Source: a virus. From it: a stretch of 64,000 nt of DNA. Below, one piece after another: positions 11,082 through 33,377 of the stretch. Position 1 is the stretch's first letter. Each line of letters starts with the position of its first letter. Location: positions 1-64,000 of IMG/VR virus record IMGVR_UViG_2225789004_000003; one strand, given 5' to 3'. The translations under genes and the position numbers were made by a program. The notes below the pieces were generated by a model. That model made no database searches and had not been told where the DNA came from. It was given only the letters and a program-made list of their open reading frames with translations.

Positions 11082-11091
11082 ATGTATCATA

Positions 11092-11135: not shown

Positions 11136-11182
11136 TACAGATAAGGTAAAAATATATTAAAAATTATAAAAGGAGTTTAAAA

Positions 11183-11539: not shown

Positions 11540-11561
11540 AATAAAACTAAGGAGAAAAAAA

Positions 11562-11681: not shown

Positions 11682-11691
11682 GGAGAATAAA

Positions 11692-12585
11692 ATGGAGATA
11701 CAAAGTTTATCAATAGCAGTTCCAGGTAAAAAGTGTGTAAATAATTGTAAGTTTTGTGTGTCAAAAATGCACAATAGTAATTATCCAGATTATATAAGTT
11801 GGGATGAGTTTAATGTTGAAAAATGCAGTAAGTCTGAACATGATTACATTGGCAAATTAGAATTTGTTAGAGATAATAATTGTCATATAGTAATGTTAAC
11901 TGGCAGTATAGAACCTATGCAAAATACAAATTTTCTTAGAAGATTCGCATTTATGAATAACCAACTAAAAAATCCATTTAAATGGATTGAAATGCAATCC
12001 TCTGGATTATTTTTAAACGATCCACAAAAATTAGAATTTTTAAAAGATGAAGTAAAAGTAAAAACTATATCTCTATCAATATCGAGTCTTAATAATGATG
12101 TCAATAATGAAATTATTGGTTTTCCTGAAAATCATAGAATTGATATTGCGGATGTATGTAGTAAAATAAAAGATTTTGGTTTTAATTTACGATTAAGTAT
12201 TAATTTGAATAAAGATTTTGAAACTCGTTATGGCTTTGATATAGATAATTTTATGGACGAATTACTTTATTTGAAACCTGATCAAATAACATTTAGAAAA
12301 TTATATATTTCATCTAGTATTGAAACTCCAGAAAATACATGGATATATGAAAATTATTATTCAGATGAATACTATAATACTTTAGTTAGTTATATACAAT
12401 CAGGAAAATTAATTGATATAATACCGTATGATAGATCTAAATATTCATTTCATGGTGTAGGTGTTATGATAAATGATAATTGTATGAATAAGCCTATTAT
12501 TGAGGGTAACTATGAATATATGATTCTTAGAGAAAATTGTAAATTATACTCTAAATGGGATGATCCTGCATCATTAATATTTTAA
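11692..12585 (+). CDS. Radical SAM domain protein, function unknown
   Basis: CVNNCKFC (C-x3-C-x2-C) at residues 15-22 and a glycine-rich SAM motif analogue MLTGSIEP. AAGGAG SD. Confidence 0.75.
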   Translation: MEIQSLSIAVPGKKCVNNCKFCVSKMHNSNYPDYISWDEFNVEKCSKSEHDYIGKLEFVRDNNCHIVMLTGSIEPMQNTNFLRRFAFMNNQLKNPFKWIEMQSSGLFLNDPQKLEFLKDEVKVKTISLSISSLNNDVNNEIIGFPENHRIDIADVCSKIKDFGFNLRLSINLNKDFETRYGFDIDNFMDELLYLKPDQITFRKLYISSSIETPENTWIYENYYSDEYYNTLVSYIQSGKLIDIIPYDRSKYSFHGVGVMINDNCMNKPIIEGNYEYMILRENCKLYSKWDDPASLIF

Positions 12586-12592
12586 TTAAAAT

Positions 12593-12672
12593 AAAAAGCT
12601 ATAAGGTATTGACTTATAACTTTTTTAATGTTATAATAGTAACATAAAAATTAATAAGACAGAGTAAAGTCT
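12593..12672 (+). promoter_or_regulatory. Early promoter E plus terminator hairpin plus conserved leader
   Basis: Hairpin 12593..12625 (one mismatch). TTGACT 12609..12614, 17 nt, TGtTATAAT (12632..12637). Leader AGACAGAGTAAAGTCT 12657..12672. Confidence 0.7.
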
Positions 12673-12695
12673 TTAAAACTAAAAGAGAGTATTAA

Positions 12696-12860
12696 ATGAA
12701 AAATCAAAAAGTAAATAAATATGGTAAAATGACAGAATTTAAATATGAGGGAATTTCCACTTTTAGGAAAAATGGACATTTATTTTACAAAATAAATGAT
12801 GTAAAACAAAATATAAATTTAAAACAGTTATCTTCTAATTTATATGAATGTGAATATTAA
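12696..12860 (+). CDS. Small ORF (54 aa, MKNQKVNKYGKMTEFKYEG...)
   Basis: First ORF after the promoter E leader, with AAAAGAGAG SD. Below the track cutoff. Confidence 0.35.
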   Translation: MKNQKVNKYGKMTEFKYEGISTFRKNGHLFYKINDVKQNINLKQLSSNLYECEY

Positions 12861-12876
12861 TATAGGAGAAAGTAAA

Positions 12877-13953
12877 ATGAAAAAATATACTAGCATGTTA
12901 AATGTATATAATAAGGACTTAAAAGCATTAACTGAAAAGCATTATGGATTGCCTTGTGTATGTCTTAATAAAATACATGGCATGAATGTTCAAATAGAAT
13001 TTATACCTAAGTCTGATTCTAATAAAACTAATGATTTTGATTTAGTTAATATATATGGACGTGAAGATTTAATAACAGCAGAAAATGATGAATATGGAAT
13101 TTTTAAATTTATAACAACTTTAAATTTTACAAATAGTTTTATACCATATATTCATAATCTAATTGAGGTAATAAAAGAAAAAGAATTACTAAAAGATGAA
13201 GTTGTTGAAAGTCTAAGTATATTCGGAGAATTTTTTGGTGGAGTATATGATCATAAAAATGTTCCAAAATGTGAAACATGTCAAAAAATACAAAGAGGTG
13301 TTCATTATAGTCCTTGCAATAATATTATACTTTTTGATATTTATATTAAATCTAATAAAAGAAATTGTTATTTAGATTGGATAAATATAGAAAGGTTATT
13401 TAGTGAAGCCAATATAAATTATCCTGATATAATATTTAGCGGAACATTGCAAGAGTGTATAGACTTTGATCCAGTATTTTTAGATCCAACTTACAAAAAG
13501 TATAATTTACCTGCAATAAAAGATAATTATTCAGAAGGTATAGTTATTCGTCCAATTAAAGAATCTAATTTTGGATATAATTTTGGAGGAGATAGGCTAA
13601 TATTAAAAAATAAATACAAAAAATTTGATGAAAGACAAAAACAACAAAATAGAGAAGCTAATCGAATAGCTAGAGAATTAGAAAGTCAAATACACTTAAA
13701 AGAATTTGATATAGCACTAGAGTATATTAATACTAACAGACTTGATAACTGCTTCTCACATTTAAATATAGTTAAAGATATTAAAAACTTTCCAGCACTA
13801 ATGAAAGAATTTAATATTGATGTATTGAAAGATTTTAAACTTGATAATGATATATTACATTTAACTAAAGATGAAAATAAATTATTGAATAAATTTATAA
13901 ACAAAAAAGCAAGTGAATTAGTAAGACAATATCTAATGGAAGTTGAGGTTTAA
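12877..13953 (+). CDS. RNA ligase, Rnl2 (T4 gp24.1) family
   Basis: KYTSMLNVYN, the nucleotidyl-transferase lysine in NKIHGMN, then IFGEFFGG, ILFDIY, EGIVIRP and ILKNKYKKFDERQK parallel T4 Rnl2 motifs I-V. Start moved to ATG 12877 behind AGGAG. Confidence 0.75.
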   Translation: MKKYTSMLNVYNKDLKALTEKHYGLPCVCLNKIHGMNVQIEFIPKSDSNKTNDFDLVNIYGREDLITAENDEYGIFKFITTLNFTNSFIPYIHNLIEVIKEKELLKDEVVESLSIFGEFFGGVYDHKNVPKCETCQKIQRGVHYSPCNNIILFDIYIKSNKRNCYLDWINIERLFSEANINYPDIIFSGTLQECIDFDPVFLDPTYKKYNLPAIKDNYSEGIVIRPIKESNFGYNFGGDRLILKNKYKKFDERQKQQNREANRIARELESQIHLKEFDIALEYINTNRLDNCFSHLNIVKDIKNFPALMKEFNIDVLKDFKLDNDILHLTKDENKLLNKFINKKASELVRQYLMEVEV

Positions 13954-13960
13954 GTAAATT

Positions 13961-14236
13961 ATGAAAATGATTAAATATTTATTAATATTTATATTTTGTA
14001 TTTTAGTCACAGGTTGTAATAACAATATTGATGTTACACATTATGGTTATCTTGATTTACAGTATATAGATAAGTCTGTTAAAGTTATTAATATACAATA
14101 TAGTTCTGAAAGCTATTATTATGTTTTTTATACAAAAGATAATGAACCTAACAAAATATTTATAGCACATATGAGAAAAGTTGATATAAATTCTAAGTTA
14201 ATTGAATCTACTAAAAAGATATTCCAATTGAAGTAG
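13961..14236 (+). CDS. Small lipoprotein (91 aa)
   Basis: Signal peptide MKMIKYLLIFIFCILVTG|C with a lipobox LVTGC. Confidence 0.7.
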   Translation: MKMIKYLLIFIFCILVTGCNNNIDVTHYGYLDLQYIDKSVKVINIQYSSESYYYVFYTKDNEPNKIFIAHMRKVDINSKLIESTKKIFQLK

Positions 14237-14266
14237 AAAAATACGAAGAAAATAAAGGAGATTAAA

Positions 14267-16246
14267 ATGAATAATACGATAAAAGAATTAGAAAATAAAA
14301 TTAAATTATACTCGGATCAATATTATCAAGGTGAGTCGGAAATATCTGATATAGAATTTGATAATTTAATTGATCAGTTAAGAGAATTAGATCCTAATAA
14401 TGGGATTTTAAGTAAAACTGGATGGGGGTATAATCCTGTTGAGTATGGCAAACCTGTGCCACATCTATTTAAATTACAAGGCTTAGATAAAGTAAAATGT
14501 GAAAAAAGTACTATTATTAATTATGATTATGTTACACCTAAATATGATGGTGCAAGTGTTGAAGTTATATATAAAAATAATAAATTTTATCAAGCCATAT
14601 CAAGAGGTAATGGAACTGAAGGGTTTGATGTTACAAACAAGTTAAAGTATATAGTACCTAATAATTTATATATAGATGATACTACCAATAATAAATCCCC
14701 TGTGGATGAAATTTTTAGATATACAAGTAATGAAATGATTTCTATATCTGGAGAATTTATAATGGATAAAATTATAAAAAATAAAGAGCAGTATTGTAAA
14801 GCTCCTTCGGCTAGAAATCTAGCTACTGGATTTTTAAATCGAAAAAAATTCAATAAAGATGAATGTAAAGATTATAGTTTTATTCCTTATAGACTAAATG
14901 GTATCGTAGTAAATTCAGATGATGAATTAAATTATGAACATTTTGAATCTCTCTGTTATAATCATTATAAATCTGAAATAATTGAGTATCTACATAATCA
15001 CTTTGTTGATAATGGTGAAGATTGTTATGATTATTTTCCTACGATTGAAAAAGAATATATTTCCGATTTTGAAGGATTTTTTCAGAGTACTAACGTAGAA
15101 GAATATTTTGAATGTGATGGAATTGTAGTTGGCACTGATAAGTTGGATTATAAAATTAAAGATAATAAAATTTACTTTAAGTATAATGATATAGCATTAA
15201 AAGTTACAAAAGATACTGCTGAAGTAGAAGTTGATAAAATTACATGGCAACTATCACGAACTGGATTATTAGTACCAGTTGTTGAGATAAAAAATCCTGT
15301 ATTTTTACAAGGTGCAACCATTTCAAGAGTAACGGCTTTTAATGCTAAATATGTTAAGGATAATAGAATTGATAAAGGTGCTATTTTAAAAATTAGCAGA
15401 AGCGGTGATGTTATACCGACAATACTTGAAGTAATTAAACCATGTGATACATTTGAAACTAATTTAGCATGTCCAGTATGTAATCAAAAAGCTGAATGGC
15501 ATAGTGTTAATTTAGTTTGTAAAAATGAAAATTGTAAAAACAAAAGTTATAGTGATATATATAGATGGATTGAATTGATCGGTGCTGAAAAAGGTGCTTC
15601 TGAAAACATTATAAATGCTATCATAGAATATGGTAAATTAACCTGTATAAGTGATATTTATAATATTATGGAATACAATTATAATTGGGATAAATTATTA
15701 AAAGACGTTCCATGTTTTGGAAAGTCATCGATTGAATTAACTAAAAAAGTATGGTCAAATTTATTTAGAGAAATAGAAGTTCATGAATTTTTATCAGCTT
15801 TAAATATCGCAGGTATAGGTTTAAAAACTGCAGAAGTTTTAGCTAAAGAGTGTGATATTTATAATAAGGTTAAAGATGTTTTTGGAAAGGCTAAATTAGA
15901 TGATATAACAAATGCAAATGGTATTGGTGAGTCTGTAAAGTCGATATTAATTAAAAATCATAATTATATCAGAAGTGTATTTATGGTTTGTAAAGTTATC
16001 GATATTAAAAAGAAAGAAGAAAGTAAGGATTTAATAAAAGTAACATTAACAGGTAAATTAGAAAACTATGGTAGAAATGAACTTTTAGAAAAGTTTAAAG
16101 ATAAAATAATTGAAACAAGTATTAATGAATGTGATTATTTAGTTACTAATACTCCTGATAGCGGAAGTAGTAAAAATGTAAAAGCTCAAAAGTTAGGCAA
16201 ACAAATAATAACTGAAAATAAGTTATTAGAAATGTTAGGAGAGTAA
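14267..16246 (+). CDS. ligA: NAD-dependent DNA ligase
   Basis: Ia-domain signature YSDQYYQGESEISDIEFDNL, adenylation KYDG, Cys4 zinc finger CPVC...CKNENC, HhH region and C-terminal BRCT-like ITLTGKL...YLVTN...SSKNVKAQKLG. Confidence 0.85.
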   Translation: MNNTIKELENKIKLYSDQYYQGESEISDIEFDNLIDQLRELDPNNGILSKTGWGYNPVEYGKPVPHLFKLQGLDKVKCEKSTIINYDYVTPKYDGASVEVIYKNNKFYQAISRGNGTEGFDVTNKLKYIVPNNLYIDDTTNNKSPVDEIFRYTSNEMISISGEFIMDKIIKNKEQYCKAPSARNLATGFLNRKKFNKDECKDYSFIPYRLNGIVVNSDDELNYEHFESLCYNHYKSEIIEYLHNHFVDNGEDCYDYFPTIEKEYISDFEGFFQSTNVEEYFECDGIVVGTDKLDYKIKDNKIYFKYNDIALKVTKDTAEVEVDKITWQLSRTGLLVPVVEIKNPVFLQGATISRVTAFNAKYVKDNRIDKGAILKISRSGDVIPTILEVIKPCDTFETNLACPVCNQKAEWHSVNLVCKNENCKNKSYSDIYRWIELIGAEKGASENIINAIIEYGKLTCISDIYNIMEYNYNWDKLLKDVPCFGKSSIELTKKVWSNLFREIEVHEFLSALNIAGIGLKTAEVLAKECDIYNKVKDVFGKAKLDDITNANGIGESVKSILIKNHNYIRSVFMVCKVIDIKKKEESKDLIKVTLTGKLENYGRNELLEKFKDKIIETSINECDYLVTNTPDSGSSKNVKAQKLGKQIITENKLLEMLGE

Positions 16247-16251
16247 AAAAT

Positions 16252-16551
16252 ATGTATATATGTAATGATATTATAGTAAGAAAGTTAAAAGAAGAATTGA
16301 GTATTAAAGGTTGTAAATATGGAATAGATAAAGATTTTACAACCAGTAGTTATGATTGTTATATAAATTTACAACTACATAACGGAGAAATAGTAAAGAT
16401 ACAAGTTCCAGTTAATAGTGTTAAAACTAAATATCAACTTTATCATAATAATAAATGTGTAATTGAAAGTCACTATTATGATAAAATTATAGATTCACTG
16501 TTATTAATAAATTTTCATACTAGTAGCAGTTATTTAAATTCAGTTATTTAA
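16252..16551 (+). CDS. Hypothetical protein
   Basis: ORF tightly packed in the operon. Confidence 0.55.
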   Translation: MYICNDIIVRKLKEELSIKGCKYGIDKDFTTSSYDCYINLQLHNGEIVKIQVPVNSVKTKYQLYHNNKCVIESHYYDKIIDSLLLINFHTSSSYLNSVI

Positions 16552-16552
16552 T

Positions 16553-16855
16553 ATGATTAGACGTAAAAATGTAGATATTGAAATTATTACTACTGATCAT
16601 GATGGTAATACTATAAGCATTGATAATTATGAAAATTATAATTTAAATTTTAAGTTAGTTCCAAATGGTGAAAATGATTGTACATTTGACTTTGATGAAA
16701 TTGATATGGATTTTAAACTAGATACTGATTTATTAAATGAAATTGGTATTAAAGATTATATTCTTAATAAGTTATTAGAAATGGATATTACTAAGGATGT
16801 TGATGAATTATCTCAATTAGTTGAAATTATTTATAATAATTATATTAGAGGTTAA
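16553..16855 (+). CDS. Hypothetical strongly acidic protein (100 aa)
   Basis: D/E-rich (FDFDEIDMDFKLDTDLLNE). Adjacent stop/start with its neighbours. Confidence 0.55.
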   Translation: MIRRKNVDIEIITTDHDGNTISIDNYENYNLNFKLVPNGENDCTFDFDEIDMDFKLDTDLLNEIGIKDYILNKLLEMDITKDVDELSQLVEIIYNNYIRG

Positions 16856-16856
16856 A

Positions 16857-17105
16857 ATGAAAAAGTTTTTAAATAAAATATTTGATTTATTAAAACCTAG
16901 ATCAATTGGTAGATATGTACCTGAAGGTTATATTGAAAGTCCTCCGCCTAATACACTTAAACCTTCTGAAGTTATTATAACTAGAACAGTATATACACCT
17001 AGAATAACAAATATTCCAAATGAAGACTTTAAAAATTTAGTAATAGGGGAGTTGAGTTGTATTAAAAGTATGTTAAATGATATTATTGAAAAGAGATTAA
17101 TATGA
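16857..17105 (+). CDS. Hypothetical protein
   Basis: Start moved to ATG 16857 (MKKFLNK) behind AGAGG. Confidence 0.55.
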   Translation: MKKFLNKIFDLLKPRSIGRYVPEGYIESPPPNTLKPSEVIITRTVYTPRITNIPNEDFKNLVIGELSCIKSMLNDIIEKRLI

Positions 17106-17698
17106 GTATACCTGTATTATGGTTTGATTGTATATTTAGATTTAAATTAGATTATCACCCTGTTACTAAAAAACCTTTATTACAAGTGAGTCTCTACGAT
17201 ATATTACCAGATTCTAATTCTAAGTTTTTTAGTGTTGTAAATGGTCAACTAGTGTTTAAATCTAAACATTTAATGTATTTAAACATTGATTCATACCATG
17301 TAATTAATATAAATTTAAATAATATAGATTTTGAAACAGATAAGCATATAGCATATTCACCTAAAGTCGAAAGTAATGACCCTGAAGATATAGGTTGTGA
17401 TGTTTTAGTATATAGAGTAAATATGCGTATCTATAATTTACGAGATAGTAAAGTTATCGGCGATTTTGAATTTGTATTTAGAATGGAAGATGTAATTAAT
17501 CATTATGAATTTAAACAATATTTTGTAGAATTCGAGAAATGGAATAATAAAGGCAAGCCAAAAGAAGTAATTACTAATGAAGAAGATGAAATGGAATTAA
17601 CTGATAAGGCTATTAAATATCTTGAAAACCTAGTTGCTAGAAGTAAAGAAATTAGATTTAAAACTTATAGAATTGAGGTTTTGGATGATAAACTATAA
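17102..17698 (+). CDS. Hypothetical protein
   Basis: ATGA overlap with the upstream gene. Confidence 0.55.
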   Translation: MSIPVLWFDCIFRFKLDYHPVTKKPLLQVSLYDILPDSNSKFFSVVNGQLVFKSKHLMYLNIDSYHVININLNNIDFETDKHIAYSPKVESNDPEDIGCDVLVYRVNMRIYNLRDSKVIGDFEFVFRMEDVINHYEFKQYFVEFEKWNNKGKPKEVITNEEDEMELTDKAIKYLENLVARSKEIRFKTYRIEVLDDKL

Positions 17699-17900
17699 CG
17701 GATATACAATAAACTGTGATTATAAAGATTGTGAACAAAAATATTCTATAGTAAGTTCTGATTGTAATGATTATGAGGATGTAGAAGAATTTATTGAAAA
17801 CTATTTAGAATGGAAAGTTGATGGGTATAATACATATTGTCCTAAATGCAAAATACAAAAAGAAAAAGATGATTTTAATAGTTATTTAGATGAAAATTGA
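17685..17900 (+). CDS. Hypothetical zinc-ribbon-like protein
   Basis: Start moved to ATG 17685 behind GAGG. CDYKDC...CPKC cysteine pairs. Confidence 0.5.
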   Translation: MINYNGYTINCDYKDCEQKYSIVSSDCNDYEDVEEFIENYLEWKVDGYNTYCPKCKIQKEKDDFNSYLDEN

Positions 17901-18393
17901 TCGTATATGGGCAATGCCTAACAAAAATACATTTGATATTAAACCTATTTTAGAATTAATTCAATCTGAAATGGTTGATGGTTTATGGATAGATCCTTTT
18001 GCTAATAAAAACAGGTTAGCAAGCATTACAAATGATTTAAATACAGAATTCGATACAGACTATCATCTGGATGCTTTGAACTTTTTAAAACTACAAAATA
18101 CAAGCTCTGTGAATGGTATATTATTTGATCCTCCATATTCTCCTAGACAGATAAGTGAGTGTTATAGAAATTTTGGATATAATATAACTAAACAAACTAC
18201 TCAATCATCATTTTATTCTAATTTAAAATCTGAAATAGGTAGGATTATAAAACCAAATGGTAAAGTAATTTCTTTTGGTTGGAATAGCGGAGGAATTGGA
18301 ATGAAATATGGTTTTGAAATAACTAGGATATTATTAGTTCCACACGGAGGTTGGCATAATGATACAATAGTTACTGTAGAAGTCAAAAAATAA
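17890..18393 (+). CDS. Small DNA (amino) methyltransferase, DPPY type
   Basis: IDPFAN (motif I-like) followed by ILFDPPYSPRQ (motif IV). Confidence 0.65.
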   Translation: MKIDRIWAMPNKNTFDIKPILELIQSEMVDGLWIDPFANKNRLASITNDLNTEFDTDYHLDALNFLKLQNTSSVNGILFDPPYSPRQISECYRNFGYNITKQTTQSSFYSNLKSEIGRIIKPNGKVISFGWNSGGIGMKYGFEITRILLVPHGGWHNDTIVTVEVKK

Positions 18394-19405: not shown

Positions 19406-19429
19406 TGATTTAAATTCCTTTAAATAAAA

Positions 19430-19503: not shown

Positions 19504-19515
19504 ATATAACTTAAA

Positions 19516-20951: not shown

Positions 20952-21275
20952 TTACAAATACATATCCTTTATTAATTTTTCAAATAAATTTTCTACATTA
21001 AATTGCGTTATAAACGTTTCTAATTCAGATTCCTTAATATAACACCTTTTTCTTTTAAAAATGCGTGTAATGGTTGAATTTGATATACAGAACTCAAATT
21101 CTAATTGGTTTTTATTAAAGTTAAATATTACAAATCTAAATAAAAATGAGTATTGAGAAAGTTTGTTTAAATTTTCAGTTTTTATTTTATAAGTATTACC
21201 TTTTATTCTATCATGTTTTATATTTTCATTCAATAGTTTTAATATTATTTCATTATAATTTTTAGTTTTAATCAT
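20952..21275 (-). CDS. Hypothetical protein
   Basis: ORF translationally coupled to the methyltransferase genes. Confidence 0.5.
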   Translation of the reverse strand: MIKTKNYNEIILKLLNENIKHDRIKGNTYKIKTENLNKLSQYSFLFRFVIFNFNKNQLEFEFCISNSTITRIFKRKRCYIKESELETFITQFNVENLFEKLIKDMYL

Positions 21276-22246
21276 TTAAAATCCCTTATAGTAGTTTCGA
21301 CAATATTTATTTCATTATCCGTTAAATTATATTTATTATAAAGCATTTTATCATTCCATTTAATATCAAAATCTTCATATGGAACAAATTTGAAACAGCC
21401 TTTATTGATATTTATGGAATTTAAACACTGTTTTAATAAATATCTAGGTAATTTCAGTTTCATAAAATTACACATATTAATAGCTTTTTGTTCTATATCA
21501 AATGTATTTAACATTAAATAAGTATCTGTGCATACAACATCAGGTTTTAATATTAATGGTGTAGTAGTTACTTTATAACCACATTTTGGATCTATGTTAG
21601 TTTCACCATTACATGGAACACTTTTACTAATTATTACTTTATATTTATTAATTAAGTTATTGTTTTTTGTAATTATAAACTTATCAATATAGCTAATACC
21701 TTCACTTGTGAATAATGTTATAGAATTATTAAATTTTTCAATTTGACCTCTAAAATTTGATTGAAAATTAAAACAATTACGCCCAGATACAATAGAGTCT
21801 AAAGTATTTATTTTTGACTTTATTATTTTATTAATTATAGATATAGAATCATTGTTTCTGATTAAAATATCAAATTGATTTAATGATCTAATAGATGTAT
21901 TTGTATTATTATAATTTATATTAGTTATTTCACAATTACCATTATGGTTTTTATTCCATAAAAAGTAGCATATACCACCAGCTATTCCAACATTATCGAA
22001 TACAAATTTACTTGATTCAAAATCAATTAATTTCTCAATTCGAGTATCATTAATCATTTCACATCTGAATGTATCTAACCCTTTACCACCAGCATACCAA
22101 CGATTAGGTATAATCATTATAATGTAATTAGGATCTAATTCCTTACTAGCTTGAATAAATTTATGATATAAAGGTTTACAACTATTTTTATGACCATTAT
22201 CATTTTCTTGATATGGAGGATTAGTTATTATAATATCAAATTTCAT
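21272..22246 (-). CDS. N6-adenine DNA methyltransferase, catalytic (NPPY) plus target-recognition half
   Basis: MKFDIIITNPPYQ at residues 1-13. Eco57I/TaqI-like region follows (IIMIIPNRW...). GAGG SD lies inside the end of the upstream ORF. Confidence 0.7.
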   Translation of the reverse strand: MKFDIIITNPPYQENDNGHKNSCKPLYHKFIQASKELDPNYIIMIIPNRWYAGGKGLDTFRCEMINDTRIEKLIDFESSKFVFDNVGIAGGICYFLWNKNHNGNCEITNINYNNTNTSIRSLNQFDILIRNNDSISIINKIIKSKINTLDSIVSGRNCFNFQSNFRGQIEKFNNSITLFTSEGISYIDKFIITKNNNLINKYKVIISKSVPCNGETNIDPKCGYKVTTTPLILKPDVVCTDTYLMLNTFDIEQKAINMCNFMKLKLPRYLLKQCLNSININKGCFKFVPYEDFDIKWNDKMLYNKYNLTDNEINIVETTIRDFK

Positions 22247-22742
22247 TGTTTACCTCACTAACCCAATCCCACTCTAAAAATTTAATTGGTTCTCCGACAC
22301 TTCCTAACATAGTTAAAAAATTACCACATATTATATTATAATCTAATATAGTATGAACATTTTTTATAATTATATCTCTAGGTTTAACATTAAATTTATT
22401 AGCTATATTTTTATAATTTTCAAACCAAATATCATACATTCTTTTTCGAGATTCTAATACATTATCATTTAAAATATCAATAGCATAAATACTTGAAATG
22501 GCTTGTAATGATTTTAATTCATAATCCTTTATATCACTATAAACTTCATTAATAAAAAGTAACTTTCTGGAAAGTATTTCAACCAGAAAGTTACCATTAC
22601 CACATGCAGGTTCTAAAACTTTAGAATCAATTCTTTTTATTTCGTCATGGACTAAATCACACATAGCTTTAACTTCACGTTCATTAGTAAAAACTTCGCC
22701 AAACTTAGATACACGTTCTTTTGACTTTATTTGTTTTGACAT
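22236..22742 (-). CDS. N6-adenine DNA methyltransferase, SAM-binding (motif I) half
   Basis: GEVFTNEREVKAMCDLV...KVLEPACGNGNFLVEIL. Lacks motif IV and ends 11 nt inside the next ORF. Confidence 0.7.
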   Translation of the reverse strand: MSKQIKSKERVSKFGEVFTNEREVKAMCDLVHDEIKRIDSKVLEPACGNGNFLVEILSRKLLFINEVYSDIKDYELKSLQAISSIYAIDILNDNVLESRKRMYDIWFENYKNIANKFNVKPRDIIIKNVHTILDYNIICGNFLTMLGSVGEPIKFLEWDWVSEVNNEI

Positions 22743-22775: not shown

Positions 22776-22804
22776 ATTATAACATAAAAACAATAACATG
22801 TCAA
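22776..22804 (-). promoter_or_regulatory. Sigma70-type promoter F for the methyltransferase operon
   Basis: Minus strand: TTGACA (22799..22804), 17 nt, TGtTATAAT (22776..22781). No AGAC-N8-GTCT leader here. Confidence 0.65.
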
Positions 22805-25800: not shown

Positions 25801-28011
25801 TGATGGATTATCTAATGCTGTATTCCATGACATATAATCAGCATTAACTCCGAGTCCAATAGCTTCACCAAGATCAATATTGTTCATTAATTTATAATTA
25901 GCACCTAAATTATCTCTCATTTTATTTAAGTGATAAGGATGATAAATAAGATAAGGGTTAGATGCTGTCCCATTACCTTCAAAAGGTTCAACTATCCAAT
26001 CTGATACAAATGTTTCAATTTCAGATTTTTCAGCCCAAATAGCATCACCAACAGGTAATTTTTCCCATTGATTTATTGAATTTTTATTCCAAAATTTATC
26101 ATTATAAAATCTAATACCATGACTCCCATTTTCTGAAACAATCATAGATGTTACATGAGTTATAACATCCCAAGCTTTTAATTCAGTTTCCCAAATGTAA
26201 TGACCATCTCCAATAATTAAATTAGCATTAGTAGGTAATGGTGTTACAAAAAATTCATTAGGTAGAAATGGAAAACCACCATTTCTAAATTGTGAATCAT
26301 GTAAAAATGGAGACCCTAATAATGTTACAAATGCTTGACTTTGCATAGTAGCTTCATTTTGCATAGTCCAACGTTGAGGATTAGCAGTATCTGGAGTAGA
26401 TGTTATGTCTAAAGCATGACAATTAACAAGTAGTATAGTACCATAAGAATAATCACCAAGTATACCTCTACCACCACTAGTACTATTTCTTACTTGGATT
26501 AATCCAGTATTATAACAACTTTCAACAGTAGTTACTCCTGAACTCAAATTTCCTTCTCCAATTATACCTGCTGATCTATATCCTGATCCTGAAGATACTA
26601 TTCCCGTGTTATAACAGTTTCTAATAATGCAATTACCAGCGGATGTACTATAAACAGAACTCGTTATACCGCTTACCCAATTATTTCCAGATATATTTCC
26701 ATGATTAGCACACCTAATAAGGTTTCCAGCTCCCACAGACATACAAATACCACCAACATAACTTCTATTAGATGCTGTGGCATCTACATTAACATTATTA
26801 GAACAATCTTGAATAGTCCCATTCAACGTTAATAAATTAACTATAACACCCATTCTATCATTGCCTGGAGTTATATACCCTTTATCAAATATAAGGTTTT
26901 TAATTGTTCCACTAACATTTTGACCAAAGAAGCCAAAATTAGTTATAGTAGGTTTTGCTAAAAACCCTTTTATCCTTTTACCATTGCCATCAAAAACGCC
27001 CTTGAATCCATCATTTACACCTGCACCAGCTATAGATTCCCAACCTTTACCTGCATTATAACAAGGAGCTAATGGATCATCATTAGCAGGAAGCCAACCA
27101 CTATATGATGGACTTACACCTAAGCCAATAACTGAAGTTAAATCTATATTATTCATTAATTTATAATTAGCATTTAAATCATTTCTAGTTAAATCTAAAT
27201 CATAAGGAGTATAAATAAGATAAGGATCTAACTGTGTTCCTGATCCTTCTCTCCTATTAACCCATTCAGTATTATAAACAATAGCAGGAGTTGGTGCTTC
27301 ATTACCCCAAACAACTGATCCAGTTTCAAACGGTAAATTTTGCCAATAACCTTCATTACTTTTAGCTTGAAATAAAGATCCATTATGCCTAAAATTATGG
27401 ATGCCTAATTCAGAAGTAATACTTGATCCTATATGGTTAACTAAGTCATTTGATTTAGTTACTTGACTCGAATTGTAATTTGCTATTTTTATATTAGAAT
27501 CATCTATAAAAGCTATTGGAGCATAAGGTAAATTTCTTATTAAAGAGTATTCAAATGGAAACATAGGTGAAGTTTCAGTTAAACAGTATACTTTATCATC
27601 TAATATATCAAATATTTTATTAGTTGGTAAATCCAATATATTATCTAATACTGTTCCTTGCCATATACCACTACCAATATACTGTCTACTTGTTGAAAAT
27701 GTATTAGTTATGACAGTTGAAGTAACTGCTCCAAGATAGCTTATTGAATAAAACATATTAAAAGTAGTTAAAGGTTCAACTATTCCATCATAATACGAAT
27801 TATGAATAGTTAATACAGGTATAGCTGTTGATGAAGCTACACAATATAAACCGTAAGCATAATTACCTTTCATATATCCTATATTATAATTATTCTCTAA
27901 TACAGGAGATTGAACATTAGTAAACCTAGCATATCCTATTATGCCTGATACTCTTGTTCTAGTATTATTTGATATTATTTTACCGTTAAAACTACAATTT
28001 CTAATCGCCAT
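22807..28011 (-). CDS. Giant tail fibre / receptor-binding protein (about 1734 aa): partial GLUG module, three complete GLUG beta-helix modules, C-terminal binding domain
   Basis: Three repeats of GSGT..PYLIYTPYDL..YKLMNNIDL..FDGNGK.IK plus I.NC.N.G rungs plus NPQRW.M.NE..MQSQ.F...NGGFPF. ATG 28011 behind GAGG; the track start is TTG. Confidence 0.8.
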   Translation of the reverse strand: MAIRNCSFNGKIISNNTRTRVSGIIGYARFTNVQSPVLENNYNIGYMKGNYAYGLYCVASSTAIPVLTIHNSYYDGIVEPLTTFNMFYSISYLGAVTSTVITNTFSTSRQYIGSGIWQGTVLDNILDLPTNKIFDILDDKVYCLTETSPMFPFEYSLIRNLPYAPIAFIDDSNIKIANYNSSQVTKSNDLVNHIGSSITSELGIHNFRHNGSLFQAKSNEGYWQNLPFETGSVVWGNEAPTPAIVYNTEWVNRREGSGTQLDPYLIYTPYDLDLTRNDLNANYKLMNNIDLTSVIGLGVSPSYSGWLPANDDPLAPCYNAGKGWESIAGAGVNDGFKGVFDGNGKRIKGFLAKPTITNFGFFGQNVSGTIKNLIFDKGYITPGNDRMGVIVNLLTLNGTIQDCSNNVNVDATASNRSYVGGICMSVGAGNLIRCANHGNISGNNWVSGITSSVYSTSAGNCIIRNCYNTGIVSSGSGYRSAGIIGEGNLSSGVTTVESCYNTGLIQVRNSTSGGRGILGDYSYGTILLVNCHALDITSTPDTANPQRWTMQNEATMQSQAFVTLLGSPFLHDSQFRNGGFPFLPNEFFVTPLPTNANLIIGDGHYIWETELKAWDVITHVTSMIVSENGSHGIRFYNDKFWNKNSINQWEKLPVGDAIWAEKSEIETFVSDWIVEPFEGNGTASNPYLIYHPYHLNKMRDNLGANYKLMNNIDLGEAIGLGVNADYMSWNTALDNPSAPLYNLGKGWLPVGSGNSISTGFAGSLDGNNKKIKNILMKNTDYYAGFFGGWLTGIVHDLIFDKGLITSTQQRVGCLAYLVTGGTTLENFSNHVNIVSTTNYVGGICVSFGSGKFKNIANHGNVTGVGGWVGGIAGSLYPSTVGTIIVENCYNTGTVTHNNNYRFGGMFGEVNNSNNPTTLINCYNAGIVRYGTSGNYSFHRGVIGDTSSAGITVTNSFSSLQSSTADNINPARWFMMNETDMQSQVFVDMLNSEGDEFVRNDSYNNGFPSFPFESPQVPDINKAKIVIGDGKSLWTTDKAIGDIGISWASSTLPDVEYNTEWVSRMSGSGSNSNPYLIYTPKDLADYVTIYYGQGSIKIMNHLDLTSAIGLGINDDYTDWDITKDNPLAPCYNDGVGWKPFGGGTSNTFDGNNKIIKGIAIKKPEGGIHDWGASFTWAGSNPVYKNMILGKGLIESHENHSSLKGAWGFNHGAFGQTFTNCATHLTIKANSGTACGFCGTRPNSGVRNSFTNCANHGNITNISNINTDASAGISVTETGTSSGNFVNCYNTGNVEGQISAGIICRSTGNTSINVDINNCYNVGYIWNIYNGNKGYGILETNSISNSGTLSNNFSATENSLTSSSWTMMSLNSMKLPSFTETLGYPFIIDSNNQNNGFPIFDFEVLEVTGNVILGNRSNNTLIDLPYELNDILNIPSTKGSNFLDNPNFAIYNRGRTTPGTVNGWAMCADRWQYQKGRESSSSPYYYRHAMNYSLITNGFSNSGLMIFTNSANNNTSNPDTYITSNPRKMRQEVVNLDRYMSALPPNTKFTLSVRYIEFTYSGGVVLSNIKTATKTKTAYDILVNNNTSPMTGLTEVFDFGVNSAGFFHTIFPNSSIILLAQLTQTDKFEGWCSFNHNDEVIKSQRFFQGYSSNQCFRVYIPVSASRTLPVLLNYLITMHRTPTIASISGVSSPWSASIASTYPDAANINITGSSAPAGGEYIFNVRLQTLDAELLT
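23815..27264 (-). repeat. Three tandem protein-level modules of about 390-425 aa inside the giant fibre
   Basis: PYLIY-encoding patches at about 27225, 25950 and 24790. Each module ends with a GFP(F/S/I)F motif. Confidence 0.75.
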
Positions 28012-28031
28012 TTTTATTACCTCATTCAAAT

Positions 28032-28595
28032 TTAATAGATAGAAGTCTCATCCGAGATAGTAATATTTTCATTAAGACTTATAATTCTATTTTCAGGAAT
28101 TTCTATTGTTCCAACTAATTCGCTATTTTGAATTAATTGCATAGTATTACCAATTCTTGTTAATGTTATAATACCTTTATCAATTAAATAATTTAATTGA
28201 TTTTGGTTTAATTGAGCTTGTGTAGGATTATTTAAACTTCTTGCTAATCTAAATGTAATTATATTAGATTGATAAATTATTCCAGAGTCATCTGATATAA
28301 CTAATGAGCAGTGTAAATTTTGTGTTTTAGTTAAAGTCTTTGGAACTTTAAATTTAGTATCTAACCAACCTAATTCTACAGAGTCTAATGGGTGATCATT
28401 TGTTGCAAATTTTAAAGTATAATTGATACCTTCTTTATCTAATTCATCTACTTTAATTATTTCTAAAATAGTTATATTATTATCACCAATTTTACCAAGA
28501 TTTTGAGAAGTCGGTATTATATTTAGATTACCACTTCTTTTACTTATTAAACATTCTAATTTTATTGTATTTTGAGTTATTAACGGTTCTGCCAT
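28032..28595 (-). CDS. Hypothetical structural protein, possible adaptor for the giant fibre
   Basis: Ends 20 nt upstream of the fibre ATG 28011. Beta-rich. A vague BppU-N-like impression only. Confidence 0.3.
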   Translation of the reverse strand: MAEPLITQNTIKLECLISKRSGNLNIIPTSQNLGKIGDNNITILEIIKVDELDKEGINYTLKFATNDHPLDSVELGWLDTKFKVPKTLTKTQNLHCSLVISDDSGIIYQSNIITFRLARSLNNPTQAQLNQNQLNYLIDKGIITLTRIGNTMQLIQNSELVGTIEIPENRIISLNENITISDETSIY

Positions 28596-28611
28596 TTTAT
28601 TTCTCCGTTCT

Positions 28612-28842
28612 TTATTCTTTAATTAAACTTACTATGTAATCTTTATCGTAATCAAGATTAAATTCTTTAATAAACATGTTTACAAATTTTAGTGTAGCTT
28701 TTTTATCACCATAAACAATATTATAATATTCATCTACATTTAATTTTAATCTAGCACTAAATTCATATTTATTTAAACCAGCATGTAATTTTACAAATTC
28801 TAAATATCTTCCAATTTTTGAATAGAATCTTAGTTTTTCCAA
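28612..28842 (-). CDS. XRE-type helix-turn-helix protein
   Basis: IGRYLEFVKLHAGLNKYEFSARLKLNVDEYYNIVYGDKKATLKFVNMF fits the HTH_XRE pattern. Confidence 0.55.
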   Translation of the reverse strand: MEKLRFYSKIGRYLEFVKLHAGLNKYEFSARLKLNVDEYYNIVYGDKKATLKFVNMFIKEFNLDYDKDYIVSLIKE

Positions 28843-28871
28843 ATTTTTAGTCCCTTTATTAGTTTAGAATA

Positions 28872-29132
28872 TTAACCATTCAATCTTCTTTTTTGATCCT
28901 TTTCACGCCTTATTTTTAAACTTTCTTCATGTTCTAATTTAAGTTTTTTACCAAGAAATTCCATTATAGGTTTATAATCTCGTAAAGTATTAGCTAAATC
29001 ATTTATGACATTTTGTTGTTTATTAATAAGTGATTTTTGATCACCAACTAATTTATATATCTTTGTAGTATTGTAAAAAGCATAAGCACAAAATAATATT
29101 AATATTATTCCTGAAATTATTGTTAAAGTCAT
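28872..29132 (-). CDS. Small membrane protein (N-terminal TM helix plus coiled coil)
   Basis: MTLTIISGIILILFCAYAFY followed by a charged helical tail. Confidence 0.55.
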   Translation of the reverse strand: MTLTIISGIILILFCAYAFYNTTKIYKLVGDQKSLINKQQNVINDLANTLRDYKPIMEFLGKKLKLEHEESLKIRREKDQKRRLNG

Positions 29133-29133
29133 T

Positions 29134-29397
29134 TTAATTATACCCTTCTATATTTATTTTAGCAAACAATGCCATGGCAATTAATTCTGCTTTTGTCATT
29201 GTTTTTCTTAAATCATTATCATTATGATCTAATTCAAACAATAATGTGAAATTATTATTTTTAGGAAACTTATCTAAAATTTTATTTTTATAATCAACAT
29301 AAATACTAACTTTTAAAATATTTAAATTGACTATATCATCTAATAATTTTGAAGTAACGCTCCAATTAGCTAATTCTAATACATCTAACTGGTTCAT
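29134..29397 (-). CDS. Hypothetical protein
   Basis: ORF, tightly packed. Confidence 0.5.
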   Translation of the reverse strand: MNQLDVLELANWSVTSKLLDDIVNLNILKVSIYVDYKNKILDKFPKNNNFTLLFELDHNDNDLRKTMTKAELIAMALFAKINIEGYN

Positions 29398-29430
29398 TTT
29401 AATTTCCTATTAAATAATTTCATATTATAC

Positions 29431-29874
29431 CTACCGTTTTTTAAATTTAGTTTCAACCAAGTCAAATCTTTTATGTAAAGAACGAAGTGATTCATGAATA
29501 GATTTTTCTTCTTTTTCTAGATCATCTTGTCTAGTATGAATTCTTTCAATAGAGTGTTTATATTCTTTACGAAATTCTGAATTTTCTTTAGTAAGATCTC
29601 TCATTGCAGTATCTATACTACTAGCTTTAGTTACTTGTTCTTTTAAATCTTTTATTCGTTGAGTCCTATCTGAATCGTATTTCCAAGCTACTATAAGTAA
29701 TAAAACTCCAAATGCACTTTCCATTAGAGTTTTATATCCATTAGAATCTTTCATATGTGCCACGTTTAAATCAGCAGTATTAGCATAAATTTTACCAAAA
29801 GCGACTAGCAAAAAAAAGCACAAAAAGAACACCCAATAATATTTTTTGTAATGTATAATCTTTTTCAGTATCAT
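29431..29874 (-). CDS. Membrane protein with two TM helices and a long coiled coil (holin-like or exclusion-like)
   Basis: YYWVFFLCFFLLVAFGKIY and AFGVLLLIVAW, then a charged coiled-coil C-terminus. Confidence 0.5.
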   Translation of the reverse strand: MILKKIIHYKKYYWVFFLCFFLLVAFGKIYANTADLNVAHMKDSNGYKTLMESAFGVLLLIVAWKYDSDRTQRIKDLKEQVTKASSIDTAMRDLTKENSEFRKEYKHSIERIHTRQDDLEKEEKSIHESLRSLHKRFDLVETKFKKR

Positions 29875-29976
29875 CTTGTAAATCTTTTTTTACCCCCTCT
29901 AAATCCCCTGACTTTTTATCCCTTAATTTACTAAACTTACATTCATTTGTTAATTCCATACAACACCATCCCTTTA

Positions 29977-31380
29977 TTAATTTGACCAATAGCCTATAAC
30001 GCCACCACAGAAATTTTCATTACCTGTAGCAGAATTATGACCAACTATTGCACTTACTGATATATTTTCAATAGTTACATTCATTCCAATTGCATAGCCT
30101 ACTAATGCTCCTATGTAATGTGTTCCACTGTAATATGTGAATATAATATTAGTATTATCTAAAAATAAGTTTTTAAGAGTTGCAGGCTGTTGTATTCTAC
30201 CAAATATACCTGTTTCAGCAAGTGTATTAATTGGTGTAATTATAATTAATCCTTTAATTATTTTATAGTTAAAATCTACACTTCCAGTAAATGCTAATCC
30301 AGTTCCTGTTTTACCAATTGGAACAAAACCTTGACCTGAATTAAATAATGGAAATGATCCAATTAAGTTATTAAATGTAAAGTTACCATTTTCATCAATA
30401 TTATTTAACTCAATACCCATTAAATCAGTAAAATCTAAATTATTCATTAATTTATAATAAGCTGTTAAATTATTTCTTATATTATTAAAGTCATAAGGAG
30501 TATAAATAAGATAAGGATCACTAGCTGTGCCAGATCCTTCTCTTTTATCTACCCACTCATTATTAAAATCAAATTCTTTAATTTCTAATGATCCACCGCC
30601 ACCAGTTTGTATTTCAATCCATGTAGATCCATTGTAATATTGTAATTTATTTTGAAAGAATCTAATGCCGTGAATACCTGTTTCAGAATATATTTCACTA
30701 TCAAAATGATTCATTAAATCAGCATTAGTTATTAATGGACTTGAATTATCTAATGTGATGGTATTACTTTGTGACGTAATAGATCCTATTTCAATAGCGT
30801 TACTCCAACCAACTAATGTTCTAGGTGTTGGATTAGCATAAAAAGTTAGTTCTATAACTAATCTTGAAGTAATTTGTTCTTCTAAATTGGGATCAACTAT
30901 TTTAGATACTCCTGTATCTCTAAAAGCCGACTCTGTGCTTTCAATATTAAATGTATTATAAGAATTATTTCTTAATCCAAAATGATAAATAAGAGCATTA
31001 TCCTCGGTAAATACAGTTGTTCTAAAATGAGCATAAATTTTTGTATTATAATTTGAATTATGAGTATTCAAATTAATTTTTAAAGTAATTGGATCTATTT
31101 CGTTTATATTATATCTTAAATCATTATCCAATATGAAATACTTTAAACCATATATATTTAAAACATCTGTAGCATTATCAACTGTAAAGCCATAAGTATC
31201 TATTTTAAATATAGATTCACTAGGATCAGTTATTGTTTTAAATAAAAACTTCGATATAGATTCAACTATATTTGTTTGCATTACATTCATATCTGATGAA
31301 GATAATGCTTTATTAAATTCATAGTTAATTCTATGAACATTAGTTTTTATTTTTGTATATTCGTTAAAAAAGTTTGACAT
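29977..31380 (-). CDS. Tail fibre protein ending inside a GLUG module (467 aa)
   Basis: N-terminal 270 aa are paralogous to fibres 33387..36542 and 36563..38758. The GLUG module starts at GSGTASDPYLIYTPYDF but stops after about two rungs (..CGGVIGYWSN*). Confidence 0.75.
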   Translation of the reverse strand: MSNFFNEYTKIKTNVHRINYEFNKALSSSDMNVMQTNIVESISKFLFKTITDPSESIFKIDTYGFTVDNATDVLNIYGLKYFILDNDLRYNINEIDPITLKINLNTHNSNYNTKIYAHFRTTVFTEDNALIYHFGLRNNSYNTFNIESTESAFRDTGVSKIVDPNLEEQITSRLVIELTFYANPTPRTLVGWSNAIEIGSITSQSNTITLDNSSPLITNADLMNHFDSEIYSETGIHGIRFFQNKLQYYNGSTWIEIQTGGGGSLEIKEFDFNNEWVDKREGSGTASDPYLIYTPYDFNNIRNNLTAYYKLMNNLDFTDLMGIELNNIDENGNFTFNNLIGSFPLFNSGQGFVPIGKTGTGLAFTGSVDFNYKIIKGLIIITPINTLAETGIFGRIQQPATLKNLFLDNTNIIFTYYSGTHYIGALVGYAIGMNVTIENISVSAIVGHNSATGNENFCGGVIGYWSN

Positions 31381-31394: not shown

Positions 31395-31600
31395 ATTGAA
31401 AACTTATAAAAAGTAATACAACTTTTATGTTTCATTCCTTATTCATAGTATCCAATTTCATATTATTAAAATATTACTTTTGTTTGATATAACACTCCAA
31501 AGGCTTAAATTTCCGACTAGTGTATCGGTATAAATCAAATATTTTGTTATACTATTAATTGTTTTCCATACCTAGCTAAATTTAAACTTGCATTGTAATC
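31395..31600 (-). ncRNA. Predicted omega/reRNA region of the TnpB element
   Basis: By analogy with characterised TnpB loci, where the guide RNA overlaps the tnpB 3' end and the right end. Local hairpin CCGATACACTAGTCGG. Not verified. Confidence 0.3.
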
Positions 31601-32720
31601 TCTATCAAGTATATTACCACACTCACACTTAAATACTCTATTTTTAAGTTTTAAGTCCTTATTAATTATACCACAAATTGAGCATGTTTTACTTGATGGA
31701 TAAAATCTATTTACTTCTATAAACTTTATATTATTCCAATTACTTTTATATTGAAATTGTTTATTAAATTCATAGAAACATTGGTTTTGAATTGCTTTAG
31801 CTAAATGTCTATTTTTCATCATACCACTAACATTAAGATCTTCTAATACAATAAATTTTGGTTTTCGATTTACTATTTCAGAAGATACATTGTGTAAATA
31901 GTTATGACGAATATTTGATAACCAATGAACTACTTTTAAAAGTTGTTTTTCACTTTTTACAATATTACTTGTTTTACAATAGTTTATCCCTTTCTTATTT
32001 TTTAAATACTTTTTTGATATATTACGCTGTAACCTACGTTTTTTCTTTTCAATCTTTTTAACAGTTTGAGATTTATTAATATTTTTATAAACATTACCAT
32101 CTGAACATGTTGCTAAGTTTTTAATTCCAAAGTCTACTCCAATACCTTTATTAGTTGGTAAATCATTAGATTGTTCAAATTCAACTCCAACTGTTAAAAA
32201 CCAATTTAATCCATTAAATATAACTCTAGGATTAGTATACTTATAACCAATAGGGACTCTATCTCTTTCAGCTAACTTAATCCAATTTTGTTTTTGTTTA
32301 TTAGGTCTTTTACTGTTAGAAATTTTCTCTAGCTTAACATGAGTTGACGTAAATTCAATTTTTAAAATATCTACATAAAAACTAGGCTTACTTTTTCTTT
32401 TACTTTTATATTTCGGAAACTTAGCTTGCTTTTTAAAAAAATCTTTTATATGCCAAAACTGCATCTTTTATAGACTGTTTTGTAACATCATTACTAATAT
32501 TATTTAACCATTTATATTTAAACTCTTTCTTTAATTGTGTAAATATTTTACGTAAATCAATATCACTTACAAATTTATTTTCAGTTTTATAAATATTTTG
32601 TTCATAATCAATAGTCCAATTATAAGCAAATCTAGCTGATCCTGCCATTTGAAACAATTTTGTATTTTGTTTATTATTAGGATTAAGCATAATTTTAATT
32701 GTTTTGATCATCACTATCAT
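31547..32720 (-). CDS. tnpB: TnpB-like RNA-guided nuclease, read in two frames joined at a T7A5 run (32430..32441)
   Basis: RuvC D (IGVDFGIKN), E (FIVLEDLN), zinc finger CSICG..CECG and D (DRDYNASLN). The N-terminal 95-aa ORF ends ..AYKRFF* where the other frame continues KKQAKFPKYKSK. Confidence 0.75.
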
Positions 32721-32783: not shown

Positions 32784-33377
32784 TTAAAAAATTTGTTCCC
32801 AATCAGAATTTCCAGGTTCAGATTCATTTATATCTTTTAATGACTTATAAATTTTATTATAATATATTACTATATCATCTTTATCATAAGCATCTAATTC
32901 ACAAATTGGCTTTGTCCAAATATTGTATTCTTTTATAAAGCCTAATTTTCGATATATAGCAGAAACTTCATCAGGTTTTCTGTTATTATCTGATATATGA
33001 TCTTGTATTACCTCATATAATTGTATCTCATTATATCCATTTAGTCCATATGAAATAATATTACCTATTTCATATTTTTTATTTAATTCATAAATAGGAT
33101 ATAAGTTAGCAAATTCAATCTTTTCAGAATCAGTTAAATCTTTAGATATTTTATTTAATAATATTTGAATTAAATTATAAAACTGAATTGTTATATAACC
33201 TTTTGATTGATTATTAAATAATTCATTTACTGTATTAGAATTAACATAAGATCTTTTTATTTCATATTCATATTTATTTTCAGATAATTTTATTTCTGAA
33301 GATATTTCTACTTCATATTTAATATTATCTATCATTGTTATTGGCGATATTAATTTATAATCAAATATATATTTCAT
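32784..33377 (-). CDS. Fibre accessory protein with two CBM5/12-like aromatic motifs
   Basis: YEIGNIISYG...LYEVIQDH and YDKDDIVIYYNKIYKSLKDINESEPGNSDWEQIF resemble Y..GD.V.Y.G..Y.....P.....W. Confidence 0.4.
   Translation of the reverse strand: MKYIFDYKLISPITMIDNIKYEVEISSEIKLSENKYEYEIKRSYVNSNTVNELFNNQSKGYITIQFYNLIQILLNKISKDLTDSEKIEFANLYPIYELNKKYEIGNIISYGLNGYNEIQLYEVIQDHISDNNRKPDEVSAIYRKLGFIKEYNIWTKPICELDAYDKDDIVIYYNKIYKSLKDINESEPGNSDWEQIF

Follow-up and report, generated by a model that had tools for sequence, protein, structure and literature searches.

A beta-helix module of a phage tail fibre divided between two genes by a five-gene block, and its probable origin by insertion

The 64,000-nucleotide (nt) stretch analysed here (positions 1 to 64,000 of the IMG/VR virus record IMGVR_UViG_2225789004_000003; hereafter the window) carries two tail-fibre open reading frames (ORFs) of 467 and 1,734 amino acids (aa) on its minus strand, separated by a block of small genes. 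The upstream ORF ends soon after opening a beta-helix module and the downstream ORF begins inside one, which raises the question of whether the two are pieces of a single fibre gene or have always been separate. An earlier note on this DNA, made from the letters alone, had proposed that an ancestral fibre gene of about 2,200 codons was interrupted by a cassette, and our results support that proposal: the pieces are complementary, their fusion is modelled as continuous, the block contains no module remnants and the other modules are uninterrupted. We consider it probable that such a gene was split by the inserted block to become a "gene in pieces" and that both pieces are still made and used. 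The insertion is supported by evidence internal to this genome; the comparative data give no proof of it.

The two ORFs complement each other on a module profile of 355 nodes, built from the four complete modules of the window (three in the 1,734-aa protein and one in a 1,051-aa paralogue). Residues 271–461 of the 467-aa protein occupy nodes 2–186, and the remaining six residues reach approximately node 192 before the protein ends (...NFCGGVIGYWSN) at the double stop TAATAA. The 1,734-aa protein resumes at node 195 with residue 3, which places its Met1 at approximately node 193, in turn 3. Its frame is open from a TTG at 28029 and its likely start is the ATG at 28011 (MAIRNCSFNGKII...), in agreement with a public gene call (P0003, 1,734 aa) that has the same start. 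The ORFs lie on the minus strand at the coordinates that the earlier note gave. Its claims also hold that the upstream ORF has an anchor, opens a module and halts after about two rungs (nodes 2–192), and that the downstream ORF opens directly with rungs, lacking both anchor and module opening. Concatenation of the two proteins (...GGVIGYWSN joined to MAIRNCSFNGK...) yields one domain, gapless at the junction, that scores 152.9 bits versus 119.2 and 28.7 bits for the separate pieces. An independent MAFFT alignment of the joined pieces gave the same result. With the N-cap and the C-terminal FPF..E cap as reference points, the pieces correspond to turns 1–2 and 3–6 of a six-turn unit with no loss and no duplication and, as had been suggested from the letters, add up to one complete module (hereafter M0).

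Structure prediction treats the joined halves in the same way. The AlphaFold2 model of the fused module, computed from a five-sequence alignment, is a continuous beta-helix with a predicted template modelling (pTM) score of 0.75 and a mean predicted local distance difference test (pLDDT) score of 66; the 10-residue blocks on either side of the junction (residues 199 and 200) have pLDDT values of 86 and 85. The top PDB matches of this model in Foldseek (6xja, 3n6z, 6xjb and 7uvk; E 3e-5 to 4e-4, template modelling (TM) score 0.45–0.50; the matches to this group of structures extend to E 1e-3, with probability 1.00) are beta-helix domains of streptococcal IgA1 proteases (6xja, 7uvk) and of BACOVA_03286 (3n6z). 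Because these best matches are single-chain beta-helix domains, we regard the module as one single-chain domain with a right-handed beta-helix fold, cut by a gene boundary. The match to the IgA1-protease beta-helix also bears on the label GLUG, which the module had first been given and which holds in part. The Pfam GLUG family (PF07581) matched neither the 467-, 1,734- and 1,051-aa proteins nor any other window protein, even at E ≤ 10; most homologues of the 1,734-aa protein (E 2e-50 to 1e-11) carry PF07581.

The other modules of the M0 type are all uninterrupted, both the four in the same genome and the one in the closest outside sequence, P0002, a 768-aa fibre encoded behind a P2-like baseplate. 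None of the GLUG-type modules in the solved structures compared or in the window genome begins at turn 3 or ends at turn 2. Furthermore, two independent truncations would be expected to leave breakpoints adjacent within about one residue in only about 3 of 355 cases, or about 1%. A single insertion is favoured over two such truncations because it explains the complementarity of the pieces, their order and strand, the clean content of the insert and the stop signal of the upstream piece. The features of the locus and its surroundings are collected in Table 1.

Table 1. Features of the split fibre locus, the intervening block and the surrounding structural genes (window coordinates)
Feature	Position	Strand	Description
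Proximal piece, 467 aa	29977..31380	-	N-terminal fibre anchor, GIHG connector, N-cap and turns 1–2 of beta-helix module M0, then TAATAA
Anchor domain and connector, aa 1–262	30595..31380	-	Common to the 1,051-aa and 731-aa neighbours and to anchor proteins in loci L004 and L005
N-half of M0, aa 269–467	29980..30576	-	Cap and two turns; profile match and MAFFT; 39–40% identical to the uninterrupted P0002 module
Intervening segment, 1,968 nt	28012..29979	-	Opens with the double stop TAATAA, closes with GAGG-N8 before the ATG of the distal piece; five genes
Block gene 1	29431..29959	-	Membrane protein with coiled coil; the 147-aa call begins at ATG 29874, where the ribosome-binding site is poor
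87-aa protein	29134..29397	-	Acidic; no homologues in Pfam, PHROGs and NCBIfam scans
86-aa protein	28872..29132	-	N-terminal membrane segment; weak BhlA-holin-like match (E 0.005, 17.2 bits vs cut-off 22.6)
76-aa protein	28612..28842	-	TTG start; helix-turn-helix look by eye, unconfirmed by any profile
187-aa protein	28032..28595	-	Stop 20 nt before the ATG of the distal piece
Ribosome-binding site GAGG	28020..28023	-	8 nt upstream of the ATG of the distal piece
Distal piece, 1,734 aa	22807..28011	-	M0 turns 3–6 and C-cap, then three connector-plus-complete-module units, then C-terminal domain
C-half of M0, aa 1–161 of distal piece	27529..28011	-	Profile nodes 195–302; unusually diverged
Reference paralogue, 1,051 aa	33387..36542	-	Same anchor as the 467-aa protein, one uninterrupted module, C-terminal domain
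T4-like portal	57466..59379	-	Structural module
1,421-aa protein			M23 peptidase domain; structural module
Baseplate genes			gp25-, J/I- and gpV-like; structural module, followed by several fibre genes, a methyltransferase, a PAAR protein and an amidase

The intervening block contains five genes, within the earlier count of five or six small same-strand genes. They encode proteins of 147 (or about 175 with a T8 run corrected), 87, 86, 76 and 187 aa, lie on one strand 0–33 nt apart and are each preceded by a purine-rich ribosome-binding site. The family matches of the first (DUF16, spanin-like, ZorA coiled coil) are weak only. In this gene, an upstream ATG at 29959 with a good ribosome-binding site seems to be the true start, and the frame of the upstream part (29792..29959, minus strand) is broken at the T8 run (29810–29817). 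The 76-aa protein had been taken for an XRE-type helix-turn-helix protein, an assignment that failed to gain a profile match in Pfam, PHROGs or NCBIfam. A six-frame scan of the block revealed no module (rung) remnants, and we found no paralogues of the block proteins elsewhere in the window. Scans of the block for defence genes were also negative, and no signal in it for a promoter or terminator exceeded chance. Nor did direct or inverted repeats flanking the block, a target-site duplication or terminal inverted repeats appear beyond chance. An Rfam E-value scan of positions 27800–30200 recovered no intron or ribozyme family at E ≤ 1; its five matches (E 1.6–9.3) fall far below gathering scores and none belongs to an intron family.

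Several other explanations of the block and its borders were considered and rejected. The GC content at third codon positions (GC3) of the block is 0.119, which does not set it apart from the rest of the genome, and a foreign origin by composition was dismissed on this ground. The sequence TAATAAA occurs at both ends of the block, and merging the two copies restores no ORF, which discounts it as a target-site duplication. Ribosomes that read on beyond the 467-aa ORF would meet six stop codons before reaching the 147-aa ORF, which is in the same frame. An alternative genetic code was likewise rejected, given ordinary transfer RNAs (tRNAs) and the use of TAA for the stops in question.

These observations lead us to propose the following history. 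The ancestral fibre would have consisted of an anchor, four connector-plus-beta-helix-module units and a receptor-binding end. The promoter-less block of five genes (1,968 nt) would have entered where turn 2 of the first module meets turn 3, with the point of insertion resolved only to about 10 nt. It would have supplied the double stop codon to the upstream piece and may also have supplied the ribosome-binding site and ATG to the downstream piece, for which the ancestral coding sequence is the other possible source. The outcome would be two intact ORFs, of 467 and 1,734 aa, both expressed as part of one late operon. In the virion, the 467-aa protein would hold the baseplate site via its anchor and the 1,734-aa protein would attach to it by stacking its four orphan turns on the two turns of its partner. 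Alternatively or additionally, the 1,734-aa protein would be held by the co-inserted 187-aa protein, a predicted BppU-like adaptor. The most far-reaching reading, which we consider unlikely, is that one beta-helix domain is rebuilt in trans in this way, with 2 + 4 turns forming the joint of a two-piece fibre split by a promoter-less block that lacks a homing endonuclease and brought its own BppU-like adaptor. Such a fibre-splitting and fibre-rewiring cassette would, if true, be of a kind not described before.

The suggestion that the distal part now uses the 187-aa protein as its own adaptor received circumstantial support. The AlphaFold2 model of this protein (pLDDT 69) comprises a beta-sandwich (aa 1–118), a helix (aa 126–139), three strands and a disordered tail. 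Its Foldseek matches in BFVD (E 3e-7 to 1e-3) are the N-termini of phage collagen-like fibres, tailspikes, "BppU domain" and "baseplate component" proteins. It also matches the baseplate entry of phage TP901-1 (4v96, chains AA/AL; E 2e-3), in a component that we take to be BppU, with generic FN3 domains scoring similarly. TM-scores of the matches to the 187-aa model reach only 0.3–0.47. In Pfam the protein matched no profile at all, BppU_N included, even at E ≤ 10, and PHROGs and NCBIfam gave no BppU match either. A full HMMER search of 1.84 billion representatives recovered only two credible homologues, P0074 and P0075. A further homologue is the 138-aa protein of locus L004 (5998..6414 in L004), where the gene order is a 647-aa fibre, the 187-aa homologue and a 781-aa fibre. 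The 647-aa fibre shares the anchor family of the 467-aa protein (24%, E 2e-7), so that the homologue stands in a fibre locus after an anchor-type gene. Locus L003 has the same first two genes, with a near-identical homologue, followed by different Mtd_N-type fibre genes. The L003 homologue sits at the transition from a conserved proximal fibre to distal fibres that are exchangeable, and so at a point of recombination between fibre loci. A third homologue, in locus L002, sits beside a portal gene and detracts from the idea. Taken together, a role of the 187-aa protein as adaptor of the 1,734-aa protein is plausible but not secure, as binding is proposed from gene position only.

The anchor family offers a second comparison. 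Locus L005 encodes a 287-aa protein that consists of the anchor only and, behind it, a distal protein with a gene of its own. Because of this arrangement, fibres made of two polypeptides appear normal in this anchor family. The same region (L005/L007, 2719..7073) encodes, after the anchor-only protein, a 461-aa protein that is lectin/FGE-like by eye and a 364-aa ORF that is reverse transcriptase-like by eye. Judged from these sequences, the region probably holds a diversity-generating retroelement that acts on the separate distal fibre.

The split fibre lies in the structural module of a large myovirus, which occupies the minus strand from about 19.5 kb onward in a window with a GC content of 26%. 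By portal comparison, the nearest cultured phages are large myoviruses of Bacillus, Listeria and Streptococcus, at approximately 32% identity. Two other fibres of this genome, of 1,051 and 731 aa, share the anchor of the 467-aa protein, whose first 260 residues are 42% identical to the 1,051-aa paralogue. The C-terminal domain of the 1,734-aa protein is also related to that of the 1,051-aa fibre.

Several neighbouring features deserve mention in their own right. Directly after the 1,051-aa fibre gene lies a 197-aa gene (32784..33377, minus strand) with a weak match to carbohydrate-binding module 5/12 (E 1.5e-4, below cut-off); its product could be a fibre accessory or assembly protein. Between this gene and the 467-aa fibre gene is an IS605-family TnpB gene (31547..32720, minus strand) with OrfB_IS605 and Cas12f-like TNB domains. 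Its DNA is 74.5% identical to a "transposase" of Staphylococcus phage phiSA12, and the gene is broken into ORFs of 95 and 305 aa that overlap at a T7A5 run (32430–32441). A link between the block and this element was rejected, as TnpB is located outside the block, on the upstream side of the 467-aa gene, and carries a frameshift of its own. Right behind the stop of the 1,734-aa ORF, ahead of the methyltransferase genes, is a perfect extended sigma-70 promoter (TTGACA, 17 nt, TG, TATAAT; 22776..22804, minus strand). The Eco57I-type N6-adenine methyltransferase that follows (21272..22742, minus strand) is divided into an N-part of 168 aa and a C-part of 324 aa beginning MKFDIIITNPPYQ, and the parts would fuse on loss of one A in GAAATTT near 22240. 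Farther away, an opposite-strand block (10257..18393, plus strand) with reversed GC skew encodes a T4 Rnl2-type RNA ligase and an NAD-dependent DNA ligase. The left end of the window carries a dUTPase, two dCMP-deaminase-like genes, tRNA-Gln and tRNA-Trp, and a tRNA-Met is located at 19429–19504.

Five points weigh against a fibre gene split by insertion with both pieces still in use. The first is the lack of an uninterrupted orthologue or close relative of either fibre piece in collections of GenBank phages, IMG/VR, proteins, metagenomes and genomes. No relative was returned by megablast against GenBank phages, IMG/VR scans with the 467-, 731- and 187-aa proteins, protein searches, a metagenome scan with the 187-aa family or a genome scan with the anchor alignment; contig look-ups by exact sequence gave no record for the window proteins queried, and a protein search based on the anchor alignment gave zero matches, with the query itself likewise missing. 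The comparison with related phages that the earlier note had advised in order to find an uninterrupted fibre gene thus yielded no orthologue, though it did yield P0002 and the uninterrupted paralogous modules. Because no such orthologue was found, the ancestral state is inferred from paralogues alone. The second point concerns the word cassette: a single insertion accounts for the layout, yet the block bears no sign of a mobile element. Searches with Pfam, PHROGs, NCBIfam and PADLOC identified no HNH, GIY-YIG, LAGLIDADG or other mobility gene, and hence no homing endonuclease, transposase or recombinase, among the five block proteins, and the repeat search gave no target duplication or terminal repeats. 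Third, the L002 homologue of the 187-aa protein follows the portal gene, itself related to the portal of the window, and therefore lies outside a fibre locus. Fourth, there are three homopolymer frameshifts within 11 kb (TnpB, the methyltransferase and, at T8, the first block gene), which could be sequencing errors, decay or slippage and hint at imperfect sequence quality. Finally, the C-half of M0 has diverged beyond what the N-half predicts and has no BLAST match to P0002. Its identity to other modules is 17–27%, compared to 26–42% for every other module pair, and the ratio of C-half to N-half identity is 0.48–0.78 in pairs with M0 versus 0.65–1.04 in all others. The divergence of the C-half could reflect altered or relaxed constraint on an orphaned half, decay of that half, or halves with different histories. 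That both M0 halves are outliers among the modules, on the other hand, speaks for the split.

The same divergence makes a recent inactivating insertion a serious alternative, though one that we consider unlikely. In that case the insertion would be real and the fibre dead, with the 467-aa stub, the 1,734-aa ORF or both persisting as remnants that have not yet acquired stops. The two other fibres with the same anchor suggest that the split fibre may be dispensable, and two other genes nearby, TnpB and the methyltransferase, are broken as well. However, at 26% GC about 8–9% of random codons are stops, and a 5.2-kb downstream ORF of 1,734 codons without stop or frameshift is unlikely to survive in the absence of selection unless the event was very recent. 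The three complete modules and C-terminal domain of this ORF are also well conserved relative to the paralogue, and a canonical GAGG-N8-ATG stands exactly at the junction. We favour continued use of both pieces because selection is the simplest reason for an intact ORF of this length with a canonical start at the junction in an AT-rich genome.

A native two-gene design, or coincidence, is less probable still, and we regard it as doubtful. Here the fibre would never have been one gene: the pieces would have evolved separately or been truncated independently, and the small genes would be long-time residents. The anchor proteins of L005 and L004, with their separately encoded distal proteins, speak for this design, as do the residence of 187-aa homologues in such loci, a block with the codon composition of the genome and the different affinities of the two M0 halves to P0002. 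Yet the anchor proteins of these relatives carry no partial beta-helix module, and a native design would leave the near-exact adjacency of the breakpoints to the 1% chance calculated above for independent truncations. It would also require modules that start at turn 3 and end at turn 2, for which the structures compared and this genome offer no precedent.

An error of metagenome assembly that placed the 2-kb block inside the fibre gene is very improbable. The three proteins checked (467, 1,734 and 187 aa) are on record on only one contig (158,074 bp, JGI/ENA), and the nearby frameshifts suggest an imperfect consensus, both of which would suit an artefact. An artefact would, however, need two chimeric joins at exactly one codon boundary. 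Moreover, protein identity between the modules is only about 30–50%, and the borders of the block have no long DNA repeats that could mislead an assembler. The block also shares the GC3 and ribosome-binding-site style of the genome and sits in operon register.

There is next to no likelihood that the halves are reunited at the RNA or protein level, be it through a self-splicing intron, a split intein, ribosomal bypass or a frameshift that leads from the 187-aa gene into the 1,734-aa frame: a group-I-like exon junction is arithmetically possible, given that the upstream coding part ends in T and an in-frame GAG/GTA lies 9 nt before the ATG, but the Rfam scan gave no credible match for an intron, the block is filled by five genes with ribosome-binding sites, the module sequence reaches both protein termini and leaves no room for intein halves, the 1,734-aa frame is closed by a TGA at 28050–28048 with no slippery heptamer before the 187-aa stop, and 1,968 nt far exceeds the 50-nt translational bypass of T4 gene 60.

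If both pieces of the split gene are used, the locus would be a natural case of a structural protein that assembles despite a cut in the middle of a folded domain. Genes in pieces would then be a phenomenon of virion fibres as well as of phage enzymes, and the locus would provide a natural model for fragment complementation of beta-helices. For annotation, it means that long fibres with a block of small genes inside them may be mislabelled as unrelated ORFs. The 187-aa family, which marks a boundary of distal-part exchange in the fibre loci L003 and L004, could be useful for predicting or engineering host range. Were the locus a relic only, it would represent ordinary mosaic decay in a fibre locus.

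The closest known parallels are the genes in pieces of T4-like phages. In Aeh1, nrdA is split by mobE; in T4, the topoisomerase genes 39/60 are split by mobA; and in Aeromonas phages 25 and 44RR, gene 43 is split into 43A and 43B (PMC2988022). In the cases studied (nrdA, gene 39/60 and gene 43), the inserts are promoter-less cassettes that depend on the host operon, and the two polypeptides reassemble into a working protein (PMC2988022). The split fibre resembles them in having two adjacent, non-overlapping same-strand ORFs colinear with one protein or domain and a promoter-less insert, and its phage also has a T4-like portal. Where those genes encode enzymes, this one encodes a structural tail fibre, and the cut falls within one beta-helix domain. 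The insert also differs in carrying five genes with no recognisable homing endonuclease, and no intact orthologue was found.

The accessory parts of the system have their own parallels. The 187-aa protein is like BppU of lactococcal phage TP901-1 (4v96) in its predicted N-terminal beta-sandwich, helix and small C-terminal part, and the position of its gene directly upstream of an anchorless fibre protein adds to the likeness to BppU-type adaptors. It is unlike BppU in being much shorter, in lacking a Pfam BppU_N match and in its low TM-scores. The turns of M0-type modules carry the G-G-(I/V)-x-G motifs of GLUG beta-helices (PF07581) such as those of IgA1 proteases and BACOVA_03286. In the IgA1 proteases the GLUG domain is part of a surface protease, whereas here it is a repeated bead in a phage fibre and falls below the Pfam model.

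The long tail fibre of T4 (gp34–gp37) is built from several polypeptides joined end to end. Like this fibre and the L005 pair, the split fibre would have an anchored proximal protein that carries a separately encoded distal protein non-covalently, as proposed here. The proteins of T4 and L005 end in complete domains, whereas in the split fibre the break runs through one domain, so that two turns from one gene and four from the other would make up a single beta-helix.

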